The notes beneath the pieces are model-generated. The model searched no databases. It was not told the DNA's origin and saw nothing but the letters and a program-made list of their open reading frames with translations. Below are positions 25,691 to 51,128 of a stretch of DNA of 55,076 nucleotides, one piece after another. A program made the translations under genes and the position numbers. The stretch is from Minisyncoccota bacterium (GTDB lineage Bacteria > Patescibacteriota > Minisyncoccia > Phycocordibacterales > UBA9973), in NCBI GenBank assembly GCA_036169735.1, contig JAVHNX010000009.1:7558-62633 (forward strand), written 5' to 3'. Each line of letters begins with the position of its first letter. Positions within the stretch are counted from its first letter, which is position 1.

Positions 25691-25710
25691 ACATTCAGCT
25701 AATTTAGTGA

Positions 25711-25749
25711 AAACTCACTTGGTATATATAATACTAAGTGAGTTTTTTT
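25711..25749 (+). terminator. Rho-independent terminator
   Basis: 10-bp stem aaactcactt / aagtgagttt, 15-nt loop, T7 run. Confidence 0.6.
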
Positions 25750-34536: not shown

Positions 34537-35790
34537 ATGAAGAAAATAATAAAAAAAATAATAAAGAAACCAGAAAATAAAAAGAAAATTTTAGTAAAAA
34601 AGGTAGTAAAAAAAGTTGAAAAGAAGATCGTAAAAAAAATAGTAAAAAAAGTGGTTAAAAAAGTAATAGCAAAAAAAGTTGTAGTTAAAAAAGTAGCACC
34701 AGTTAAACAATCTGCATCAGAAAAGAAAATAGATGGGTTAACTCGTCTTTCCAACGAACTTATAGAAAAAGGACGCAAAAGAGGTTTTATAACATATGAT
34801 GAGATTTTGAAAACTTTTCCTGATATTGAAAATAATATTTTATTTTTAGATGACCTTTATGAAAAATTGGGTGTTGCTGGAATCGATGTTTTGGAAGGTG
34901 GAAACTTACTGAATCTTGATCTTGATGTAAATGATAAAGATTTAAACAAGTCTACTCTTCATGATTCAATCCAGATGTATTTGAAAGAGATTGGTCAGTA
35001 TCCTTTGATTCATGCGAGTGATGAAAAAGACCTTGCGAAACGTATTGAAAAAGGGGACTTGGAAGCGAAGAACTTACTGGCTCGTGCAAACCTCCGTTTG
35101 GTTGTTTCTATTGCCAAGAAGTATGTTGGACGAAGTGCTGATTTAACACTCTTAGATCTCATTCAGGAAGGCAACCTGGGCCTTTTTAAGGCTGTTGAGA
35201 AGTTCGATTGGACCAAAGGCTATAAATTCTCTACATACGCCACCTGGTGGATTAGACAGTCAATTACACGTGCTCTAGCCGATCAATCCAGAACTATTCG
35301 TATCCCAGTACACATGGTTGAGACTATTTCCAAGTATAAACAGATTCATCGCCGATTGAGCCAGGATTTAGGCCGTGAACCTCTTGCCGAAGAAATTGCG
35401 ACAGAAATGGGAATCAGTATCGATAAAATTCACGTTATTGAAAATATCAGTCAGGAAACGATTTCTCTTGAACAACCAGTCGGAGATGATGATGATAAAT
35501 CAACTTTAGAAAACTTTATTCCAGATGACAAGATTCTACGCCCTGACCAAGAATCTTCCAGAAGAATTTTGTCTGATCAGATTCGTGAAGTACTCGATGA
35601 GTTGAATCCAAAAGAACGTAAGATTCTAGAAATGCGTTATGGATTACTTGATGGTATACAGCACACATTGGAGAGAGTAGGTGAGGAGTTTAATGTCACT
35701 CGTGAGCGTATTCGTCAGATTGAAGCGAAAGTCCACGAAAAACTTCGCCAGAATGAAAAGATTTCTCGACTTAGAGGATACTTTGATTAA
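34537..35790 (+). CDS. rpoD: Primary (group 1) sigma-70 factor with an unusual Lys-rich N-terminal extension
   Basis: Region 2 [18 protein letters not shown], region 3 [10 protein letters not shown], region 4 [17 protein letters not shown]. The first ~55 aa are KK(I/V)(I/V)KK repeats. Confidence 0.93.
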
Positions 35791-35800
35791 ATAAAAATAG

Positions 35801-35839
35801 CCACAAAAAAATCACCCATATGGGTGATTTTTTTTGTGG
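35801..35839 (+). terminator. Rho-independent terminator after rpoD
   Basis: Long hairpin ccacaaaaaaatcaccca / tgggtgattttttttgtgg, with one extra T in the 3' arm. Confidence 0.7.
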
Positions 35840-35851
35840 TGTTTGAATTAA

Positions 35852-35957
35852 AGACCCCCTCCCAGCCTCCCCCTTAGTAAGGGGGAGGAGTAAAATACGG
35901 TGAATTCTGATTTAATTTCTTCCTCCCCTTACTAAGGGGAGGATTGAGGTGGGGTCT
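35852..35957. repeat. GC-rich nested palindromic element: two 23-nt palindromes enclosed by an outer inverted repeat
   Basis: Palindrome A is cctccccctta-g-taagggggagg (35866-35888). Palindrome B is tcctcccctta-c-taaggggagga (35921-35943). The outer arms are agacccc (35852-) and ggggtct (-35957). Confidence 0.7.
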
Positions 35958-45562: not shown

Positions 45563-45718
45563 AAGTTGTTTTAAAGCTTTAGGAAATAAAAATATAGAAT
45601 TTGTTTTTAAAATACATTGCGCAGGCCGACGGGCCGAGCATAGCAAATTTTCAGCAGAAAATTATGTCGCGTATTTTAAAAATTAATTCTTTATTTTTAT
45701 TTAAATTATATAAAAATT

Positions 45719-47137
45719 ATGGAATTTAAAATAGAAAAAAAAATGAAAGGGTGTCTTGGAAGAATAGGGGTTTTGACAACCCCACACGGAGTTATTTTAA
45801 CTCCTTCTTTTGTGGCGGTTGGAACTAAGGCTACAATAAAATCTCTCAATCCAGATCAGGTGAAAGAAGAGGGAACTCAAGTTGTACTGGGAAATACTTA
45901 CCACTTATTTTTACAGCCTGGTGATGAGATAGTTGCCAAGGCCGGAGGTATCGGAAAGTTTATGAATTGGTCCGGTCCGACAATGACAGACTCAGGTGGT
46001 TTTCAAGTTTTTTCTTTGGGTGCTGCTTATGGAAAAAATATTTCGAAAGTTATTCAAATCACCGATCCATCACTGATGATTCCCGAACGTTTTGATGATA
46101 GTGATGCGCCACGTCTCGCAAAGATTGGACAAGATGGGGTGTCTTTCAAGTCTCATTTAGATGGATCTATTCATTACATTACGCCTGAGAAATCAATTCA
46201 GATTCAACACAATCTCGGTGCTGATATAATTTTTGCTTTTGATGAATGTACTAGTCCTGCGGAAGATTTTAAATACCAAGAAGAAGCTTTGAATCGTACT
46301 CATGCTTGGGCTAAGAGGTGTTTGGAAGAACATAAAAAATTAGAAGAGTTAAAGGAAAATTCAAAGAAGATATTTTCTCGCGACTCGCACTCTGACCTGG
46401 GTGTGGTTAATGATCTGGACGTAGCGTATGTCGCAGAAAACACTTCTTTAAATTTTCCTGACATTACAGAAAGCTCGACCTTGAATTTTCTCCAAAGTTC
46501 TCAGGCTTTATTTGGTATTGTGCAGGGTGGCAGAGAAGAAGACCTTCGCAAAAGATCTGCTCAGGTTATTTCAGAAATGCAGGTTGATGGAAAAAGTTTT
46601 GATGGTTTTGGTATTGGTGGAAGTTTTGCCAAAGAAGATATGAGTACAGCTGTGAAGTGGGTGAATGAAATTTTGCCGGAAGAAAAACCTCGACATTTGC
46701 TCGGTATCGGTGAACCGGAAGATTTATTTATGGGTATAGAAAATGGCGTGGATCTTTTTGATTGTGTCTTGCCGACACGTCTCGGACGCAATGGTACTAT
46801 CTATACAAAAAAAGGAAAGATAAGTATTACGAATGCAAAATATCGTGATGATTTTTCTCCAATTGAAGATGACTGTGAATGTTACACTTGTGGGCAAAGT
46901 AGCAGAGGACAAGGTGACTCCTTACCCAGAGGGGAAGGTGTTTCCTTGTCTTCCGTAAAATACAGCAAAGCCTACATAGCCCACCTATTCCACGGCAAAG
47001 AAATGCTAGCAGGAACCTTGGCTTCAATTCACAATTTACATTTTATTGTTTCTCTTGTTGCCAAAATCCGTCAGAGTATTATTGATGATAATTTCTATGA
47101 GTTTAGGGATGAGTTTTTGAAAAATTACGAAAAATAA
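45719..47137 (+). CDS. tgt: Queuine tRNA-ribosyltransferase with two lineage-specific insertions (472 aa)
   Basis: TPHG...TP.F..VGT, MTDSGGFQV, FAFDEC, LFGIVQGG, GFGIGGS, LLGIGEPEDL, Zn motif CECYTC ... SIHNL. Confidence 0.9.
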   Translation: MEFKIEKKMKGCLGRIGVLTTPHGVILTPSFVAVGTKATIKSLNPDQVKEEGTQVVLGNTYHLFLQPGDEIVAKAGGIGKFMNWSGPTMTDSGGFQVFSLGAAYGKNISKVIQITDPSLMIPERFDDSDAPRLAKIGQDGVSFKSHLDGSIHYITPEKSIQIQHNLGADIIFAFDECTSPAEDFKYQEEALNRTHAWAKRCLEEHKKLEELKENSKKIFSRDSHSDLGVVNDLDVAYVAENTSLNFPDITESSTLNFLQSSQALFGIVQGGREEDLRKRSAQVISEMQVDGKSFDGFGIGGSFAKEDMSTAVKWVNEILPEEKPRHLLGIGEPEDLFMGIENGVDLFDCVLPTRLGRNGTIYTKKGKISITNAKYRDDFSPIEDDCECYTCGQSSRGQGDSLPRGEGVSLSSVKYSKAYIAHLFHGKEMLAGTLASIHNLHFIVSLVAKIRQSIIDDNFYEFRDEFLKNYEK

Positions 47138-47161
47138 AAAGCTTCATTTATGAAGCTTTTC
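47137..47161. terminator. Bidirectional terminator between tgt and the convergent small gene
   Basis: aaaagcttca / tgaagctttt stem with a ttta loop. Confidence 0.6.
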
Positions 47162-47177
47162 GTGTTTTTAAGAATTT

Positions 47178-47459
47178 TTATTCTTCCGCTTTTTCTTCTG
47201 TTGATTTTCTTAATTGATTTATTTCTTTTTGTTTTTTTGATATAAAACAAATTAAATATAAAATAAACAAAAGATCATTAATTGGATGAATTATCGGTTC
47301 AATTTCAAGTGAAATAAAACTCATAATAATTAGTGTTAACCCAATTACTGCAATAATCATCATTATTGAATTAAGAGTTTTATCACCTATATTTTTAGCA
47401 ATAAACTCGTGTGGGTACTCTAGCTTTGTAAATTTCATATCTTTAAGTTTTAAGAACAA
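47178..47459 (-). CDS. Hypothetical small two-TM membrane protein (start uncertain: TTG at 47459 or ATG at 47438)
   Basis: Hydrophobic segments SIMMIIAVIGLTLIIMSFI and LLFILYLICFI. No recognisable motif. Confidence 0.4.
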   Translation of the reverse strand: MFLKLKDMKFTKLEYPHEFIAKNIGDKTLNSIMMIIAVIGLTLIIMSFISLEIEPIIHPINDLLFILYLICFISKKQKEINQLRKSTEEKAEE

Positions 47460-47548
47460 ACTGTTTTAGGTCAGTTAAAGCACCTTTTTATCTTTTAATA
47501 TTATATACCTTTTAATCTAAAATGTCAAGAGGTAAATAAGCCTTGTTT

Positions 47549-47557
47549 TGCTATACT
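47549..47557 (+). promoter_or_regulatory. Extended -10 element TGcTATACT, ending 11 nt before the uvrB ATG
   Basis: Read in the sequence. There is no good -35, which is typical for extended -10 promoters. Confidence 0.4.
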
Positions 47558-47568
47558 TTTACCTGTAA

Positions 47569-49677
47569 ATGCCAAACAACAAATTCAAACTCCATACCGA
47601 ATACCAGCCCGCAGGGGACCAGCCAAAGGCTATAAAGGGGCTTTTGGAAGGTCTAAAAAAAGGTATGCACAAGCAGACCCTTTTGGGTGTGACAGGTTCC
47701 GGTAAGACTTTTACTGTGGCGAATGTTATTGCTGAAATGAATAAACCGACTTTGGTTATTGCTCACAACAAAACTCTCGCAGCACAGCTTGCTCAAGAGT
47801 ACAAAACTTTTTTTCCGGAAAACGCGGTGCATTATTTCGTTTCTTATTACGACTATTATCAACCCGAAGCATACATGCCGACTACAGATACTTTTATTGA
47901 AAAAGATGCGCAGATCAATAAAGAAATAGACCGATTGAGACATGCTTCGACACAAGCACTTTTGACTCGCAAAGATGTAATCATTGTCGCTTCAGTTTCT
48001 TGTATTTATGGTTTGGGAAGTCCAGAAGAATACAAGGAAGAAAATTTAGAAATAACTATTGGAGATAAAATAACTCGTACGAGCATGATGTCTCGATTGA
48101 TAGAAATACATTTTGAGAGAACGAATGCAGACCTGACTCCAGGTACTTTCCGTGCATTGGCAAATAAAATAGAAATTATGCCGGTGTCGGAAAATTTTTT
48201 ATATTCTATCGAGCTTGCTGAACCTGATGCAACAAGGTCGGACCTTAAATCCCCAAAAAGGTCCGACCTTAAGGAGCCAGTTGCATCAGGTTCAGCTGTT
48301 AAGAGTATTCTTCGCATTGACCCAGTTTCTTCTAAAATCCTCTCTGAGGAAAAAAGTATTTTTATTTTCCCGGCAAAACATTTCATAACTAATAAAACAA
48401 AATTAGCGAAAGCCATAAAAGATATTCAAGCGGAGTTAAAATTACAATTAAAAAAGTTTAATAAAGAAGGAAAGCTTCTAGAAGCGGAGAGAATTAAACG
48501 TCGTACAAATTATGATATAGCAATGCTCCGCGAGGTTGGGTATTGTTCCGGAATAGAAAACTATTCTCGTCTTTTGTCCGGTAAGAAAGCAGGTGAAGCA
48601 CCCGAGACTTTGTTGTCTTATTTTGGAAAAGATTTCCTGACAGTTATCGATGAATCGCATGTCACACTGCCACAGATTGGTGGTATGTATGCAGGTGATG
48701 CTTCTCGTAAAACTACTTTGATTGAACACGGTTTTAGATTGCCAAGTGCCAAGGATAACAGACCTCTTAAATATGATGAGTTTGAAAAGCGTGTTGGCCA
48801 GGTGATTTATACGACAGCGACTCCTTCTGAAGTTGAAAGAAAAGAAAGTGATCAGATAGTGGAGCAGATTATCCGTCCTACAGGCCTTGTAGACCCTGAA
48901 ATTGAGGTGAGACCGATTGCGGCTGTACTTGGTAGTCCTGCTACCAAGTTAGTAGCAGGACTACCAAGTTACCCAGGCCAAGTGCAAGATTTCATCGCAG
49001 AAGCAGGAAAAGAAATTAAAAAAGGTGGCCGAGTGATAGCTACCACTTTGACCAAAAAAATGGCGGAAGATTTGTCTGCATATTTGAAAGACAAAAAAAT
49101 AAAATCAGAGTATGTGCATAGTGACATAAAGACGATTGAACGTATAAAAATCTTAACAGAATTCCGTCGAGGAACTTTTGATATTTTAGTCGGAGTGAAT
49201 CTTCTCCGCGAAGGTTTGGATTTACCGGAGGTGACACTCATTGGTATTTTAGATGCGGACAAAGAGGGGTTTTTGCGTAGTGAAGTTTCTTTGATACAGA
49301 CGATAGGTCGTGCTGCTCGAAACGTTGCAGGACGTGTGATTCTTTATGCTGACAGGATTACTGGCTCGATGGAGCGTGCGATGGCAGAGACAAATCGCCG
49401 ACGAGTTATCCAAGTCGCTTATAATAAAAAACATAATATAACTCCGAAAACAATTATTAAAAAGATAAATGATATTACTGAAGCATTGGATAGTCTGCAT
49501 GATAAAGCAGTAGCTTCTGAGCTCGATCTGGATACGAAACTTTTTGCAAAAAATCCCTCTAAGCTTGTGAAGCTAAAAGAGCGACAAATGTCCGAGGCAG
49601 TAAAAGCTTTAGATTTCGAAACCGCGGCTATTCTCCGTGATGAACTTAAAGTCTTAAAAGAAAGATTGGTGAAGTAA
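47569..49677 (+). CDS. uvrB: Excinuclease ABC subunit B with two in-frame palindromic insertions
   Basis: Walker A GVTGSGKT, YVSYYDYYQPEAY, DESHVT, helicase motifs LTKKMAEDL / VGVNLLREGLDLPEV / QTIGRAARN, and the C-terminal UVR motif ..FETAAILRDEL. Confidence 0.95.
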   Translation: MPNNKFKLHTEYQPAGDQPKAIKGLLEGLKKGMHKQTLLGVTGSGKTFTVANVIAEMNKPTLVIAHNKTLAAQLAQEYKTFFPENAVHYFVSYYDYYQPEAYMPTTDTFIEKDAQINKEIDRLRHASTQALLTRKDVIIVASVSCIYGLGSPEEYKEENLEITIGDKITRTSMMSRLIEIHFERTNADLTPGTFRALANKIEIMPVSENFLYSIELAEPDATRSDLKSPKRSDLKEPVASGSAVKSILRIDPVSSKILSEEKSIFIFPAKHFITNKTKLAKAIKDIQAELKLQLKKFNKEGKLLEAERIKRRTNYDIAMLREVGYCSGIENYSRLLSGKKAGEAPETLLSYFGKDFLTVIDESHVTLPQIGGMYAGDASRKTTLIEHGFRLPSAKDNRPLKYDEFEKRVGQVIYTTATPSEVERKESDQIVEQIIRPTGLVDPEIEVRPIAAVLGSPATKLVAGLPSYPGQVQDFIAEAGKEIKKGGRVIATTLTKKMAEDLSAYLKDKKIKSEYVHSDIKTIERIKILTEFRRGTFDILVGVNLLREGLDLPEVTLIGILDADKEGFLRSEVSLIQTIGRAARNVAGRVILYADRITGSMERAMAETNRRRVIQVAYNKKHNITPKTIIKKINDITEALDSLHDKAVASELDLDTKLFAKNPSKLVKLKERQMSEAVKALDFETAAILRDELKVLKERLVK
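48217..48296. repeat. 80-bp compound palindrome inside uvrB (17-bp perfect outer arms, 13-bp perfect inner arms)
   Basis: gctgaacctgatgcaac (48217-48233) is the exact reverse complement of gttgcatcaggttcagc (48280-48296). Inner aaggtcggacctt (48234-48246) is the exact reverse complement of aaggtccgacctt (48258-48270). Confidence 0.9.
48927..48969. repeat. 43-bp palindrome inside uvrB (18-bp perfect arms, 7-nt loop)
   Basis: acttggtagtcctgctac (48927-48944) is the exact reverse complement of gtagcaggactaccaagt (48952-48969). ctaccaagtta also occurs twice as a direct repeat (48941 and 48961). Confidence 0.9.
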
Positions 49678-49690
49678 TTTTTTAAATTCT

Positions 49691-49718
49691 TTGCATTTTA
49701 ATTTCAGCTTGCTATACT
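49691..49718 (+). promoter_or_regulatory. Promoter TTGCAT-N16-(TGc)TATACT, with the -10 ending 12 nt before the ATG
   Basis: Hexamers read in the sequence upstream of 49731. Confidence 0.5.
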
Positions 49719-49730
49719 TTTCGCAATAAA

Positions 49731-51128
49731 ATGGCAAAGAAAAAAATAAAGAAAAACGGTAAGAATTGGAAGAAATTTTGGAAGCTCGGTGTGGAGGAAT
49801 TCAACACTCAGTTTTTTGGAGTTTCAAAAGACGGGGATATGACTGTCTCTGAAGGTCACAACTTATATAATCTTTCTGACTTAGCAGAAAAGTATGGAAC
49901 TCCTCTGCAAGTAGTTTTACCTTTTGTTATTGAGGACCGTTTAAAAGACTTGATTGGGTATTTCCAGGCTTATATGAAAATATATGGCTATAAGGGTAAA
50001 TTCTTTTATCACTATCCAATGAAGGTAAACCAGAATAAAGAATTTATTTTACCTCTTGTTTCTGAAGGAGCAAATTTGGAAGTTACTTCAGCAAATGAAC
50101 TTTGGCTTGTAAAAAAACTTTGGGAAAGAGAAAAATTTGATAGTAAAATCCGAGTACTTTGCAACGGACCAAAGACCGACGTTTATTTAGATTTGATTGA
50201 AGAATTACGTACCAAGGGGATGAGTATTATTCCTATTATTGAAGGTCCTGAAGAGATTGAAAGACTTGCAAAATACAAGGGTGATATCGGGGTACGCGTA
50301 GACCTCTCCATAAAAGCAGATACCCATTGGGATAAAAAATTTGATCGTTTTGGATTGTCAGAACGTGATGTTCTTGATTTGAATAAAATGAAAAATCTAA
50401 AGATAATGCACTATCATTTGGGTTCTCAAATAAAGACACAGAAAAGTATTTTAGATGGAGTGAAACATGCTTTTAGTATTTATGTTGAACTACAAAAAAC
50501 ACATCAAAATTTAGACACTTTAGATATTGGTGGAGGCTTCGGTATTCCTTATGAAAAGAAAAAGTTTTATACCGCGAAAGGTGTCTCAAGTAAGATGATA
50601 AGAATGCTGAAAAACTTGTCAGATAAAGCAGGTATCAAGCATCCAAACCTGGCTGTCGAATGGGGACAATATATTGTAGCTCCATCACAAGTTACGATTT
50701 ATAAAATTATTTCCGAGAAATCCATTCCGAAAGCCAATGCTAAAGCTTGGTATATTATTGATGGAAGTTTTATGAATGATTTAAAGGATACATGGGCAAT
50801 TCATCAGAAATGGCATACGATACCTGTGAATCATATGAATGGTAGTTTAAAAAGAGTTTGGCTAGCTGGTAGTAGTTGTGATTCAGATGATAAATATACT
50901 GCTGGTGGTAATTATATTCTCTTACCAAAGCTTCATGAAAACAAAGATCAGTATGTGGCTATTTTAGATACGGGTGCTTATCAAGATAGTCTTGCCTCAC
51001 ACCATTGTCTCCTGTCTGCTCCAATGAAAATAGTAGCTCAGGATGGCATGATAAAAATTGCTCGTAAGCGTGAAACAGCAGAATCAATCGGTAAGCTTTT
51101 TGGTTGGAACACTGGAGATCATAAATAA
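49731..51128 (+). CDS. speA: Compact biosynthetic arginine decarboxylase-like PLP enzyme (alanine racemase-fold decarboxylase)
   Basis: PLP-lysine context YHYPMKVNQNKEF (SpeA-type YP.KVNQ), HYHLGSQI, LDIGGGFGIPYE, GSSCDSDD, DTGAYQDSL. At 465 aa it is shorter than the ~630-aa classical SpeA. Confidence 0.65.
   Translation: MAKKKIKKNGKNWKKFWKLGVEEFNTQFFGVSKDGDMTVSEGHNLYNLSDLAEKYGTPLQVVLPFVIEDRLKDLIGYFQAYMKIYGYKGKFFYHYPMKVNQNKEFILPLVSEGANLEVTSANELWLVKKLWEREKFDSKIRVLCNGPKTDVYLDLIEELRTKGMSIIPIIEGPEEIERLAKYKGDIGVRVDLSIKADTHWDKKFDRFGLSERDVLDLNKMKNLKIMHYHLGSQIKTQKSILDGVKHAFSIYVELQKTHQNLDTLDIGGGFGIPYEKKKFYTAKGVSSKMIRMLKNLSDKAGIKHPNLAVEWGQYIVAPSQVTIYKIISEKSIPKANAKAWYIIDGSFMNDLKDTWAIHQKWHTIPVNHMNGSLKRVWLAGSSCDSDDKYTAGGNYILLPKLHENKDQYVAILDTGAYQDSLASHHCLLSAPMKIVAQDGMIKIARKRETAESIGKLFGWNTGDHK

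Follow-up and report, generated by a model that had tools for sequence, protein, structure and literature searches.

MITEs derived from IS200/IS605, also called palindrome-associated transposable elements, are non-autonomous, hairpin-ended DNA elements that are presumably moved in single-stranded form by a Y1 transposase. Rickettsia palindromic elements (RPE), which Ogata et al. are said to have described in 2000, are palindromic repeats lying in frame within protein genes. The REPtron concept joins REP and REPIN sequences with RAYT (Nunvar 2010; Bertels & Rainey 2011). Di Nocera et al. (2013, PMC3733652) described GTAG/CGTC REPs that lie inside known protein genes, in frame, either as single units or as dimers. 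More than half of them are dimers; they encode about 20-30 residues, thought to lie in loops or linkers, and are enriched in uvrA, uvrB and uvrD (PMC3733652). In-frame palindromic repeats are strikingly frequent in excinuclease genes: the uvrB gene of R. conorii has two, and the uvrA genes of Thioalkalivibrio and O. terrae also contain them (PMC3733652). Perfect inverted repeats of up to 284 bp have also been reported from the coding sequence of mitochondrial genes in Nematomorpha (Mikhailov et al. 2019, PMC6649704). Our literature searches combining RAYT or REPIN with Patescibacteria or CPR found no report.

Here we analyse a perfect palindrome in the uvrB gene of a Patescibacterium, within a 55,076-nt stretch of DNA that was examined as a whole (the window). 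We consider it likely that this palindrome is an intragenic element of the REP/REPIN type, made of two inverted 23-nt GTAG hairpins from a family associated with a RAYT-like gene. The features discussed are listed in Table 1.

Table 1. Positions of the uvrB palindromes and neighbouring hairpin inserts in the window.
Feature	Position	Strand	Description and basis
Unit 1	48927..48949	+	Complete 23-nt REP-like hairpin ACTTGGTAG-TCCTG-CTACCAAGT
TA junction between units	48950..48951	+	Sequence
Unit 2	48952..48969	+	Inverted unit, loop CAGGA, first 5 nt missing; translated (L)VAGLPS
uvrB ORF	47569..49677	+	Host gene, 702 aa; ORF list, Pfam, solved UvrB structures
Inserted block	48925..48969	+	15 codons, V453-S467, VLGSPATKLVAGLPS; codon comparison with L003, L006, L007
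First uvrB palindrome (site 1)	48217..48296	+	Unrelated hairpin family, nested structure, UvrB domain 2
tgt hairpin insert A	46353..46459	+	In frame; 17-bp outer stem, family-A-like core
tgt hairpin insert B	46899..46955	+	In frame; peptide SSRGQGDSLPRGEGVSLSS; fold and translation

An earlier note on this DNA had pointed out perfect 18-bp arms around a 7-nt loop, an 11-mer present twice and an alternative hairpin pairing, and each of these observations stands. Direct reading and a script check agree that ACTTGGTAGTCCTGCTAC (48927-48944) and GTAGCAGGACTACCAAGT (48952-48969) are exact reverse complements, the spacer being CAAGTTA and the total length 43 bp; the segment is in frame and encodes ..RPIAAVLGSPATKLVAGLPSYPGQVQDF.. 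in the UvrB product. The 11-mer CTACCAAGTTA occurs at 48941 and 48961 only. As single-stranded DNA the doublet folds at -20 kcal/mol (z = -8.5; 0/200 shuffles as good), and the alternative small hairpin, 48927-48949 alone, folds more weakly (-7.7 kcal/mol, z = -6.2). The palindrome is far beyond chance: the analytic expectation for perfect arms of at least 18 bp with a spacer of 0-60 nt is 2.6e-4 in the window, and none of 200 dinucleotide shuffles of the window reached an 18-bp arm (mean longest 11.6, largest 17). No other copy of the 18-mer was present within the window at up to three mismatches (expected 0.01). The sequence 3' of the hairpin has no T-run or other regulatory signal, and reading the palindrome as an intrinsic terminator was rejected because the T-run is missing. 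When the window was scanned in full against Rfam at gathering thresholds, only the start of a 16S rRNA and one tRNA came up, and nothing at the hairpins.

The 43-bp palindrome consists of one unit, TA, and the same unit inverted and shortened by 5 nt. Unit 1 has a 9-bp perfect stem and a 5-nt loop, contains GTAG and is translated LGSPATK. Folding of unit 2 alone is not significant; the 18-bp perfect palindrome arises from its pairing with unit 1. Loci L101 and L098 have the inverted form in full, ACTTGGTAGCAGGACTACCAAGT, and unit 1 is identical at 21-23 of 23 positions to hairpins flanking or inside the RAYT-like genes of L113/L114, L121, L122 and L123. Read from the sequence, the element has a single stop-free frame, the other two running into TAG, and the uvrB copy uses this sole open frame. 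Most copies of the 23-nt unit at other loci are followed by TT[AG] or T[AG]. The repeated 11-mer, which had been suggested to be a target-site duplication, comprises the 3' stem half CTACCAAGT and the usual T[TA] tail, once per unit copy. The same tail follows unit copies at other loci, and the target-site duplication reading is not supported.

The host gene is identified by its Pfam domains (ResIII, UvrB_inter, Helicase_C, UvrB and UVR) and by the match of its product to solved UvrB structures (E = 5e-226). The palindrome had been proposed to mark a lineage-specific in-frame insertion absent from typical UvrB, and comparison with orthologues supports this. Aligned B. subtilis UvrB (3v4r) reads VRPI, an 18-residue gap and EGQIDDL, and the site is empty in the close relatives L003, L006 and L007 (..GCT TCT AAG AAA TAT CCC..). 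The 23-nt unit has no similarity to this empty-site sequence. Deletion of 48945-48964 (20 nt), put forward earlier as a means of recovering an ortholog-like sequence, breaks the frame and restores none; removal of the full 45-nt block 48925-48969 gives RPIAA|YPGQ, which is ortholog-like and two residues below the seven-residue baseline. Although the insert measures 45 nt, the net gain is only 12 codons, and the insertion event was therefore not clean. In the AF2 model the insert region is coil with pLDDT <50 at 456-460, flanked by a strand (444-448) and a helix (471-484) that are predicted with confidence. Both UvrB inserts, at site 1 (pLDDT <50 at residues 222-239) and at the doublet position (site 2), are predicted as low-confidence loops, the one at site 2 as disordered or floppy.

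The uvrB doublet was inserted into an interdomain linker where inserts of many kinds are tolerated. Unrelated hairpin families occupy site 2 in 40 of 120 relatives, the remaining 80 (about two thirds) having no insert of at least 8 aa, and the occupant is not the same among the three closest genomes. Strong DNA hairpins account for 20 of 25 relatives' inserts at this site (z <= -2.5, down to -7.4), and several of the relatives' inserts are dispersed repeats. The outer stems of the other insert families are taxon-specific yet complementary, and that of the L004 insert seemingly reaches into the native flanking codons. Site 1 is likewise an insertion hotspot (18/120 relatives). In the neighbouring tgt gene, insert A shares 99% identity over 107 nt with L001 at the orthologous position, and insert B has a 39-nt match in L009 at 90% identity. 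With several families in uvrB and tgt, and a site 1 hairpin unrelated to the doublet, the earlier suggestion of more than one mobile-type family is upheld. The further suggestion of a repeated, mobile-type element agrees with the presence of the unit at L101 and at RAYT-like loci of relatives.

A metagenome scan with one arm (17-mer) returned 32 loci, of which only L098 and L101 were informative; about 30 were matches to a single arm in genes unrelated to one another and were put down to chance. Two matches lie in GC-rich contigs, a 22-nt exact match without a hairpin (L103) and a stem with one mismatch (L091). L101 carries a doublet, ACTTGGTAGCAGGACTAC-CACTTG-GTAGTCCTGCTACCAAGT, translated in frame as LVAGLP-LGSPATK, on another low-GC contig within a PaaX_M-domain (PaaX-like) gene that is unrelated to uvrB, at a position corresponding to about residues 59-71 of a full-length homolog. 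It has 18-bp arms and a 6-nt spacer, and both its unit order, opposite to that in uvrB, and its truncation differ. L098, which is the same as L113 and L114, has three unit copies around and inside gene P0121, one of the copies at this locus with a compensated stem change from G:C to A:T. Outside RAYT loci the unit was seen in uvrB and L101 only. Flanks of about 10 kb around five RAYT loci had none beyond those at the RAYT gene, the window had no second copy, and the doublet translation had no match at E <= 10 in a database of 5.8 billion proteins. Scans of viral contigs for the unit and its sister variant gave no match, so there is no sign of phage origin. The copy number of the family looks low and sparse. 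All unit variants have GTAG on one or both strands, and A-CT-T opens each unit. In characterised REPs, GTAG is located 5' of the hairpin foot (PMC8266576), whereas these units have it within the stem.

The product of P0121 matches Pfam Y1_Tnp (PF01797) with 32 bits against a gathering cutoff of 23. For all 34 aligned homologs the sole family match was NCBIfam REP_Tyr_transpos (NF047646), at 28 bits or less and hence below the equivalog cutoff of 80. NPNHFH and GGYTRYFN are invariant in the 34 homologs, placing an HUH motif and a catalytic tyrosine on the Y1_Tnp fold. The AF2 model (pLDDT 83.7) finds its best PDB fold match in 4ER8, the E. coli RAYT with its REP hairpin (E = 9.6e-5), with IS608/ISDra2 TnpA structures ranking behind; sequence searches of PDB chains with P0121 and with the 34-sequence profile gave no match. 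Judged by sequence, P0121-type proteins are RAYT-like and divergent, not equivalogs.

Cognate hairpins lie 15-19 nt upstream of the start codon and 2-10 nt after the stop codon of this gene (L113/L114, L115-L119, L121-L123), and the unit or a co-varying sister variant also occurs twice in frame inside the Y1-transposase gene of related genomes. This four-hairpin layout is kept in six RAYT loci, where the hairpin sequence co-varies with the locus, and the in-ORF hairpins sit at conserved codons across RAYT-like homologs that are 56-76% identical. A more distant homolog in L060 is flanked by a different hairpin. The gene is single copy per contig, and its neighbourhood (transketolase/RpiB/GAPDH/PfkB) is shared by L115, L118, L119, L123 and L124; unlike IS200, it is a single-copy, vertically inherited gene in a conserved housekeeping neighbourhood. 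At L124 and L125, RAYT loci on long contigs, the cognate hairpins are decayed or different, and the neighbouring genes have no clear unit copies. The window itself has no RAYT gene; a tblastn search with the RAYT-like protein gave only a match inside mreC at E = 0.17, which was rejected.

As in REP/REPIN and RAYT systems, the unit here is a short palindrome. It contains GTAG, though within the stem, and has a CT next to it as a candidate cleavage dinucleotide. In size and in its perfect stem it is similar to group 3 REPs, such as those of S. maltophilia with 23 nt and an 8-bp stem. REPINs are inverted doublets that form one long hairpin, as in uvrB and L101. In REPtrons, a single-copy HUH/Y1 gene in a conserved neighbourhood has copies of the repeat on both sides, as does the RAYT-like gene in the related genomes here; its hairpins co-vary with it, and in fold its product is closest to the E. 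coli RAYT-REP complex. The uvrB copy differs in being intragenic and translated, whereas classical REPs are extragenic, and copy number is apparently very low, against hundreds per genome for classical REPs. Moreover, the RAYT-like ORF itself carries two in-frame cognate hairpins, its product is too divergent for the NCBIfam RAYT cutoff, and the host is a Patescibacterium. The intragenic position does not exclude REP membership, since the literature accepts intragenic REPs (PMC3733652). Compared with the intragenic REPs and RPE already described, the element belongs to another phylum and has an unrelated repeat sequence. Its likeness to RPE is one of behaviour only, the unit length being different, and no transposase is known for RPE, while the uvrB unit is carried by a RAYT-like gene in related genomes. 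IS200/IS605-derived MITEs, like the uvrB element, have no classical terminal inverted repeats and no target duplication, but they keep both IS ends and are longer; IS200/IS605 TnpA genes are multi-copy and mobile, in contrast to the single-copy RAYT-like gene in its conserved neighbourhood. Nematomorpha mitochondrial genes, as here, demonstrate that a translated gene and a strong hairpin can coexist (PMC6649704), but both arms there encode conserved parts of the protein, whereas the uvrB palindrome is an extra, non-conserved loop from a dispersed repeat.

As a REP/REPIN-type element, the uvrB doublet was probably mobilised in trans by a RAYT, given the association of unit and RAYT in related genomes. 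The proposed steps draw on the biochemistry of TnpA_REP from E. coli, Stenotrophomonas and Marinomonas (Ton-Hoang 2012, PMC3333891; Messing 2012, PMC3479197; Corneloup 2021, PMC8266576). Acting in trans, the RAYT would bind the folded single-stranded hairpin, cut at the CT beside it, in keeping with the A-CT-T start of the units, and insert the cut hairpin into other single-stranded DNA. Landing in a gene would mostly be lethal; the insertion in uvrB would persist because it is in frame, stop-free and placed in a surface linker between the two UvrB helicase domains. In a tiny, gene-dense genome, such repeats may find few places to survive, permissive loops of this sort being one of them. Several observations count against this reading: the window has neither a RAYT gene nor a second unit copy, the family looks sparse, the RAYT-like protein scores below the equivalog cutoff and has no PDB match at sequence level, GTAG lies in the stem, and the insertion was not a clean one. 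We also know of no direct demonstration of in vivo transposition for any REP.

A different origin would be de novo template switching by fold-back: during replication or repair, the nascent strand would have copied its own complement and produced the inverted duplication on the spot, without a mobile element. Perfect hairpins are known products of template switching (bioRxiv 10.1101/2023.04.19.537475). In uvrB, 2 nt join the truncated second copy to the first, and the L101 doublet has the opposite order and a different truncation, so that the arrangement looks like local rearrangement and not the transfer of one fixed dimer. The taxon-specific yet complementary outer stems of other families point the same way, and the L004 stem extending into native codons is as expected from arm-to-arm copying. 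The strong version nevertheless fails to explain the presence of this very unit in another gene, on a different contig, and its three to five copies at a Y1-transposase gene in several genomes; nor does the unit bear any resemblance to the empty site. A purely mutational origin is no longer needed, because the unit exists elsewhere beside a dedicated transposase-like gene. In a weaker version, one unit would have been inserted first, and template switching might then have produced the truncated second copy at the site. On the whole we regard template switching as rather unlikely.

The hairpin might instead have been exapted, being useful in the uvrB mRNA (stability, pausing, or binding of RAYT or another protein), or the 15-residue loop might be of use. 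Pairing is perfect at 18 of 18 positions, without decay, the in-ORF hairpins at conserved codons of the RAYT homologs look maintained, and REPs have been reported to affect mRNA stability and translation (PMC3733652). Perfect pairing may, however, merely reflect a young insertion; the occupant changes among the three closest genomes, two thirds of the relatives do without a sizeable insert, the loop is predicted to be disordered and no T-run or other regulatory signal follows the hairpin, all of which makes a selected function quite improbable. Short perfect palindromes can also come from fold-back chimeras during sequencing or assembly, and the exact gene is known from one sample only. Against such an artefact, contig L120 of an independent Logan assembly (run SRR25490526, 3,529 bp) is 100% identical to positions 46820-50348 of the window, both uvrB palindromes included, so that it and the 62.6-kb contig agree base for base over 3.5 kb. 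The palindrome is also shorter than the read size, keeps the frame and avoids stops, the same site bears hairpin inserts in dozens of independently assembled relatives, and the unit is present in unrelated assemblies; we regard an artefact as exceedingly unlikely.

Intragenic REP dimers, including those in uvrB, were published in 2013, and the uvrB doublet is a further case and no new kind of system. Read as a REP/REPIN-type element, an odd perfect palindrome in an essential repair gene becomes an identifiable REP-type repeat with a candidate mobilising enzyme, and an independent case of the puzzling association of REPs with uvrA, uvrB and uvrD. If insertion is targeted and not just filtered by selection, this would bear on the unexplained excess of REPs in excision-repair genes that was noted in 2013. 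The two in-frame cognate hairpins at fixed RAYT codons could be an autoregulatory or self-targeting feature, undescribed for known REPtrons. Only tentatively, and with more doubt than confidence, do we suggest that RAYT/REP-type systems may have become largely intragenic in the ultra-small genomes of Patescibacteria, several families persisting mainly as in-frame loops in essential genes, with the UvrB linker serving repeatedly as a landing site and changing occupants faster than proteins diverge by about 10%. For annotation, the extra loops that are often noted in CPR/Patescibacteria proteins can partly be selfish hairpin DNA and not adaptive, and four UvrB loops are marked as tolerating 10-50 extra residues, which is of relevance to protein engineering. 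For RAYT/REP biology, these observations add a phylum with tiny, gene-dense genomes, sparse and partly intragenic repeats, and hairpins inside the transposase gene.

The 702-aa uvrB open reading frame of the window carries a perfect palindrome in frame. As the earlier note stated, its arms ACTTGGTAGTCCTGCTAC and GTAGCAGGACTACCAAGT are exact reverse complements around a 7-nt spacer (CAAGTTA), and the 11-mer CTACCAAGTTA is duplicated, with no third copy. The gene encodes an ordinary UvrB, with the full set of UvrB Pfam domains and E = 5e-226 against solved UvrB structures. It lies in a Patescibacteria housekeeping stretch (class II aaRS, mreB, mreC, tgt, uvrB, PLP decarboxylase, rpoB/rpoC and the start of a 16S rRNA), and the names on the closest UvrBs indicate a Minisyncoccia/Nomurabacteria-like host genome. 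At the window's GC content of 34%, perfect 18-bp arms separated by a short spacer should number 2.6e-4 by chance, and 200 dinucleotide shuffles produced no such arm. TAG stops, as a direct reading of the sequence reveals, close two of the element's three frames and leave one open. A second assembly of the gene, from Logan (run SRR25490526), shows no difference across 3,529 bp that take in the two uvrB palindromes; this makes an artefact of one assembler unlikely, and the palindrome is a real feature.

The encoded loop is absent from ordinary UvrB, as had been supposed. In the alignment with B. subtilis UvrB (3v4r), VRPI is followed by an 18-residue gap and then EGQIDDL, and the position (site 2) is empty in three relatives (L003, L006 and L007). 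Among 120 close UvrB relatives, a baseline of seven residues (e.g. IASKKYP) separates RP[VI] from GQ[VI]QDF, and 40 carry 8-45 extra residues at exactly this point. Site 2 is the busiest of four internal insertion hotspots in this Patescibacteria alignment, in which the C-terminus is variable too. Its occupant differs in each of the three closest genomes: in the window it is the palindrome; in L001 and L002, with UvrBs 89% and 88% identical to that of the window, the site spans 38 and 36 residues and carries GC-rich multi-hairpin inserts. AlphaFold predicts both inserts of the window's UvrB as low-confidence coil between confident flanks, at residues 222-239 (site 1) and around 456-460 (site 2). 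The latter stretch falls between strand 444-448 and helix 471-484; in published UvrB structures this is the junction ahead of the second RecA-like helicase domain.

The site-2 palindrome is a doublet, consisting of a 23-nt unit, ACTTGGTAG-TCCTG-CTACCAAGT (9-bp stem, 5-nt loop), then TA, then an inverted unit that lacks its first five bases and has the loop CAGGA. The earlier note had proposed that the 11-mer could be a target-site duplication. This is ruled out by the anatomy of the unit, since in each unit the 11-mer combines the 3′ half of the stem with the usual T[TA] tail, which also follows copies elsewhere. The two mutually exclusive hairpins do exist as alternative folds, but they are simply unit 1 alone (-7.7 kcal/mol) versus the full doublet as single-stranded DNA (-20 kcal/mol, z = -8.5). 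Deleting 48945-48964, suggested as a means of revealing a duplication, does not restore an ortholog-like sequence. In-silico removal of 48925-48969 (45 nt) joins RPIAA to YPGQ, two residues under baseline, and the event must therefore also have lost two or three native codons.

A metagenome scan with one arm returned 32 loci, about 30 of them single-arm matches in unrelated genes and two informative. In contig L101 (GC 0.33), ACTTGGTAGCAGGACTAC-CACTTG-GTAGTCCTGCTACCAAGT contains both units in reversed order with a different truncation, in frame (LVAGLP-LGSPATK) in a gene for a PaaX_M-domain regulator and internal to the extent of full-length homologues. Three units, each single, lie in a 750-bp stretch of contig L098 (L113 and L114 are identical to it), around and inside a 210-aa gene. 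Long matches to one arm, exact or nearly so, in two GC-rich metagenome contigs, L103 and L091, are taken, short of proof, as chance.

The protein of the L098 locus, P0121, is RAYT-like, a divergent relative of the REP-associated tyrosine (HUH/Y1) transposases (RAYTs, also TnpA_REP) that lies outside the curated family. Its Pfam Y1_Tnp domain scores above gathering. The NPNHFH (HUH) and GGYTRYFN (tyrosine) motifs are invariant among 34 homologues, and the sole NCBIfam match of all 34 is the REP-associated tyrosine transposase model, well under the equivalog cutoff. Sequence searches with P0121 against PDB chains gave no match; by fold, its AlphaFold model (pLDDT 83.7) best matches 4ER8, a complex of the E. 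coli RAYT with a REP hairpin (E = 9.6e-5), with the TnpA structures of IS608 and ISDra2 coming next. There are more than 1,100 homologues, several with the JGI label RayT. The gene occurs as a single copy among conserved transketolase/RpiB/GAPDH/PfkB neighbours, in keeping with RAYTs having been described as domesticated genes that are inherited vertically (PMC5581495).

Six RAYT loci have a common layout of four cognate hairpins each. The hairpin varies by genome (GTAGTCCTGCTAC, GTACTCCGACTAC, GTAGTTCGACTAC; L121 has GTAGCAAGACCAC with GTAGCCTTGCCAC) and is partly homogenised within a given locus; at codon 150 in L121, L122 and L123 it is the window-type unit (LGSPATK). About 40% of 120 homologues have the heptapeptide L[GS][ST]x[AT]TK at each in-frame site (codons ~60 and ~150), and the former site is the sole low-confidence internal segment of the AF2 model. 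To our knowledge, REP copies within the ORF of a RAYT have not been described before. A more distant RAYT homologue in L060 lies 2.3 kb upstream of a uvrB with an empty site 2, and its own hairpin, TAGCAAGGAC(C/G)GTCCTTGCTA, is unrelated to the unit. This is present upstream as a full copy, ahead of which its left half is partly repeated in tandem, and downstream as a single copy. An intergenic hairpin of the window, CACTTGGTAT-ATATA-ATACTAAGTG, has the same outer stem as the unit upstream of the L113 RAYT gene. A T-run comes after this hairpin, which may thus act as a terminator, represent a diverged unit copy, or both.

Other hairpin families occupy the same hotspots. Scored against same-length segments of the same gene, site-2 inserts reached z <= -2.5 in 20 of 25 relatives' loci (strongest -7.4), the exceptions to strong folding being one low-complexity insert and two weak ones; the inserts are GC-enriched (0.50-0.62 versus 0.33-0.48 for the gene). 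Several are dispersed repeats, found elsewhere in uvrB and in further genes. Copies of the family A core (CGTCGTTCGCACTCTGTCTTGGAAGGGCAAGA..CGCAGCGAAGAC) and of the family B element share 84-96% nucleotide identity between species with UvrB proteins only ~65% identical, a sequence comparison that suggests horizontal spread or strong constraint. The core of family A is conserved; its outer stems are taxon-specific yet still complementary. The site-1 palindrome is unrelated to the doublet, being nested, with 17-bp outer arms enclosing two AAGGTC[GC]GACCTT hairpins (peptide RSDLK). RSDLK-type peptides occur at both uvrB hotspots of the relative P0081, and in L012 (site 1) and L055 (site 2). Since other families recur at other sites and in other genes, and tgt has hairpin inserts, the earlier suspicion of more than one family was right. 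Overall the earlier interpretation is partly right: in-frame insertion also holds, and the target-site duplication does not. The intergenic mreC-tgt hairpin has a 19-nt core, AAATTTTCAGCAGAAAATT, common to the L025 uvrB site-2 insert and to L014 and L002 sequences, and may represent a further family with extragenic and intragenic copies. An intergenic cluster of GC-rich inverted repeats (CTCCCCCTTAGTAAGGGGGAG and others) in an AT-rich region recalls family B hairpins in style.

Coordinates of the uvrB palindrome, related hairpins and RAYT-like genes
Feature	Location	Detail
uvrB ORF	window 47569-49677	
Palindrome arms	window 48927-48944; 48952-48969	
11-mer copies	window 48941; 48961	
Site-1 palindrome	window 48217-48296	
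UvrB hotspot	after residue 218	inserts >=8 aa in 18/120 relatives
UvrB hotspot	after residue 354	inserts >=8 aa in 3/120 relatives
UvrB hotspot (site 2)	after residue 453	inserts >=8 aa in 40/120 relatives
UvrB hotspot	after residue 664	inserts >=8 aa in 19/120 relatives
tgt in-frame hairpin insert	window 46353-46459	99% identity over 107 nt to orthologous position in L001 (closest relative); core family-A-like
tgt second in-frame hairpin insert	window about 46899-46955	
mreC-tgt intergenic hairpin	window 45604-45682	
Intergenic inverted-repeat cluster	window 35787-35957	
Intergenic hairpin	window 25710-25746	
Family A/B inserts	uvrB site 2 of L005, L014, L015, L019, L027, L037, L056, L062	
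Families A/B at other sites	e.g. L037 4043-4114; L023 58-137	
L098 unit	ends 15 nt upstream of start codon of 210-aa gene	
L098 unit	codon 62 of 210-aa gene	in frame, K-LSSPATK-S; compensated G:C to A:T stem change
L098 unit	4 nt past stop of 210-aa gene	opposite orientation
Hairpins of six RAYT loci	15-19 nt upstream; codon 60-62; codon 150-152; 2-10 nt past stop	both codon sites in frame
RAYT-like genes with four-hairpin layout	L113 58-751; L115 9965-10650; L118 4788-5474; L121 123-819; L122 477-1167; L123 1422-2115	
Distant RAYT homologue	L060 160-950	
Second gene, faint Y1_Tnp match	L124 19720-20418	Nomurabacteria genome; 9 kb from RAYT-like gene
Single-arm match	L103 838-859	22 nt, exact
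Single-arm match	L091 86-106	one-mismatch hairpin, read as LGSPATK

The best explanation, and in our judgement a probable one, is that the uvrB palindrome is an intragenic REP/REPIN-type doublet. For characterised TnpA_REP enzymes the substrate is the single-stranded REP hairpin, to which they bind; GTAG is required, and cleavage falls at a CT nearby (PMC3333891, PMC3479197, PMC8266576). The unit has GTAG, located inside the stem, and always begins A-CT-T. By analogy with these enzymes, a RAYT acting in trans would excise and reinsert the folded single strand, and selection would then retain only those insertions that fall in frame, free of stops, in a loop that tolerates them. As for the truncated second unit, it may have arrived within a dimer, or template switching may have generated it on the spot; given that the window and L101 arrangements differ, either is possible. 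A search of the 55-kb window found no RAYT and no further copy of the unit. A peptide search with the translated doublet against 5.8 billion proteins gave no match at E <= 10. Outside RAYT loci the unit family was seen only twice (uvrB and L101), and the flanks of five RAYT loci lack it, making it far sparser than classical REPs.

The classic example of palindromic repeats within genes has, since 2000, been the RPEs of Rickettsia. REPs lying entirely within ORFs are likewise on record (Di Nocera et al., 2013; PMC3733652). Dimers that encode 20-30 residues make up more than half of them, and their positions have been argued to be linkers or loops. Excinuclease ABC genes carry notably many, with two in R. 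conorii uvrB (RPE-4/6) and others in uvrA and uvrD (PMC3733652). The uvrB doublet behaves like these repeats and the RPEs, and is best classed with such already known intragenic palindromic repeats. The coding palindromes of Nematomorpha differ, because both arms there encode conserved protein (PMC6649704). Our literature search found nothing linking RAYTs or REPINs to Patescibacteria. What is new is this host phylum, together with an intragenic copy tied directly to a RAYT-flanking repeat, the low copy number of the unit, and the presence of cognate hairpins in frame inside the RAYT gene itself.
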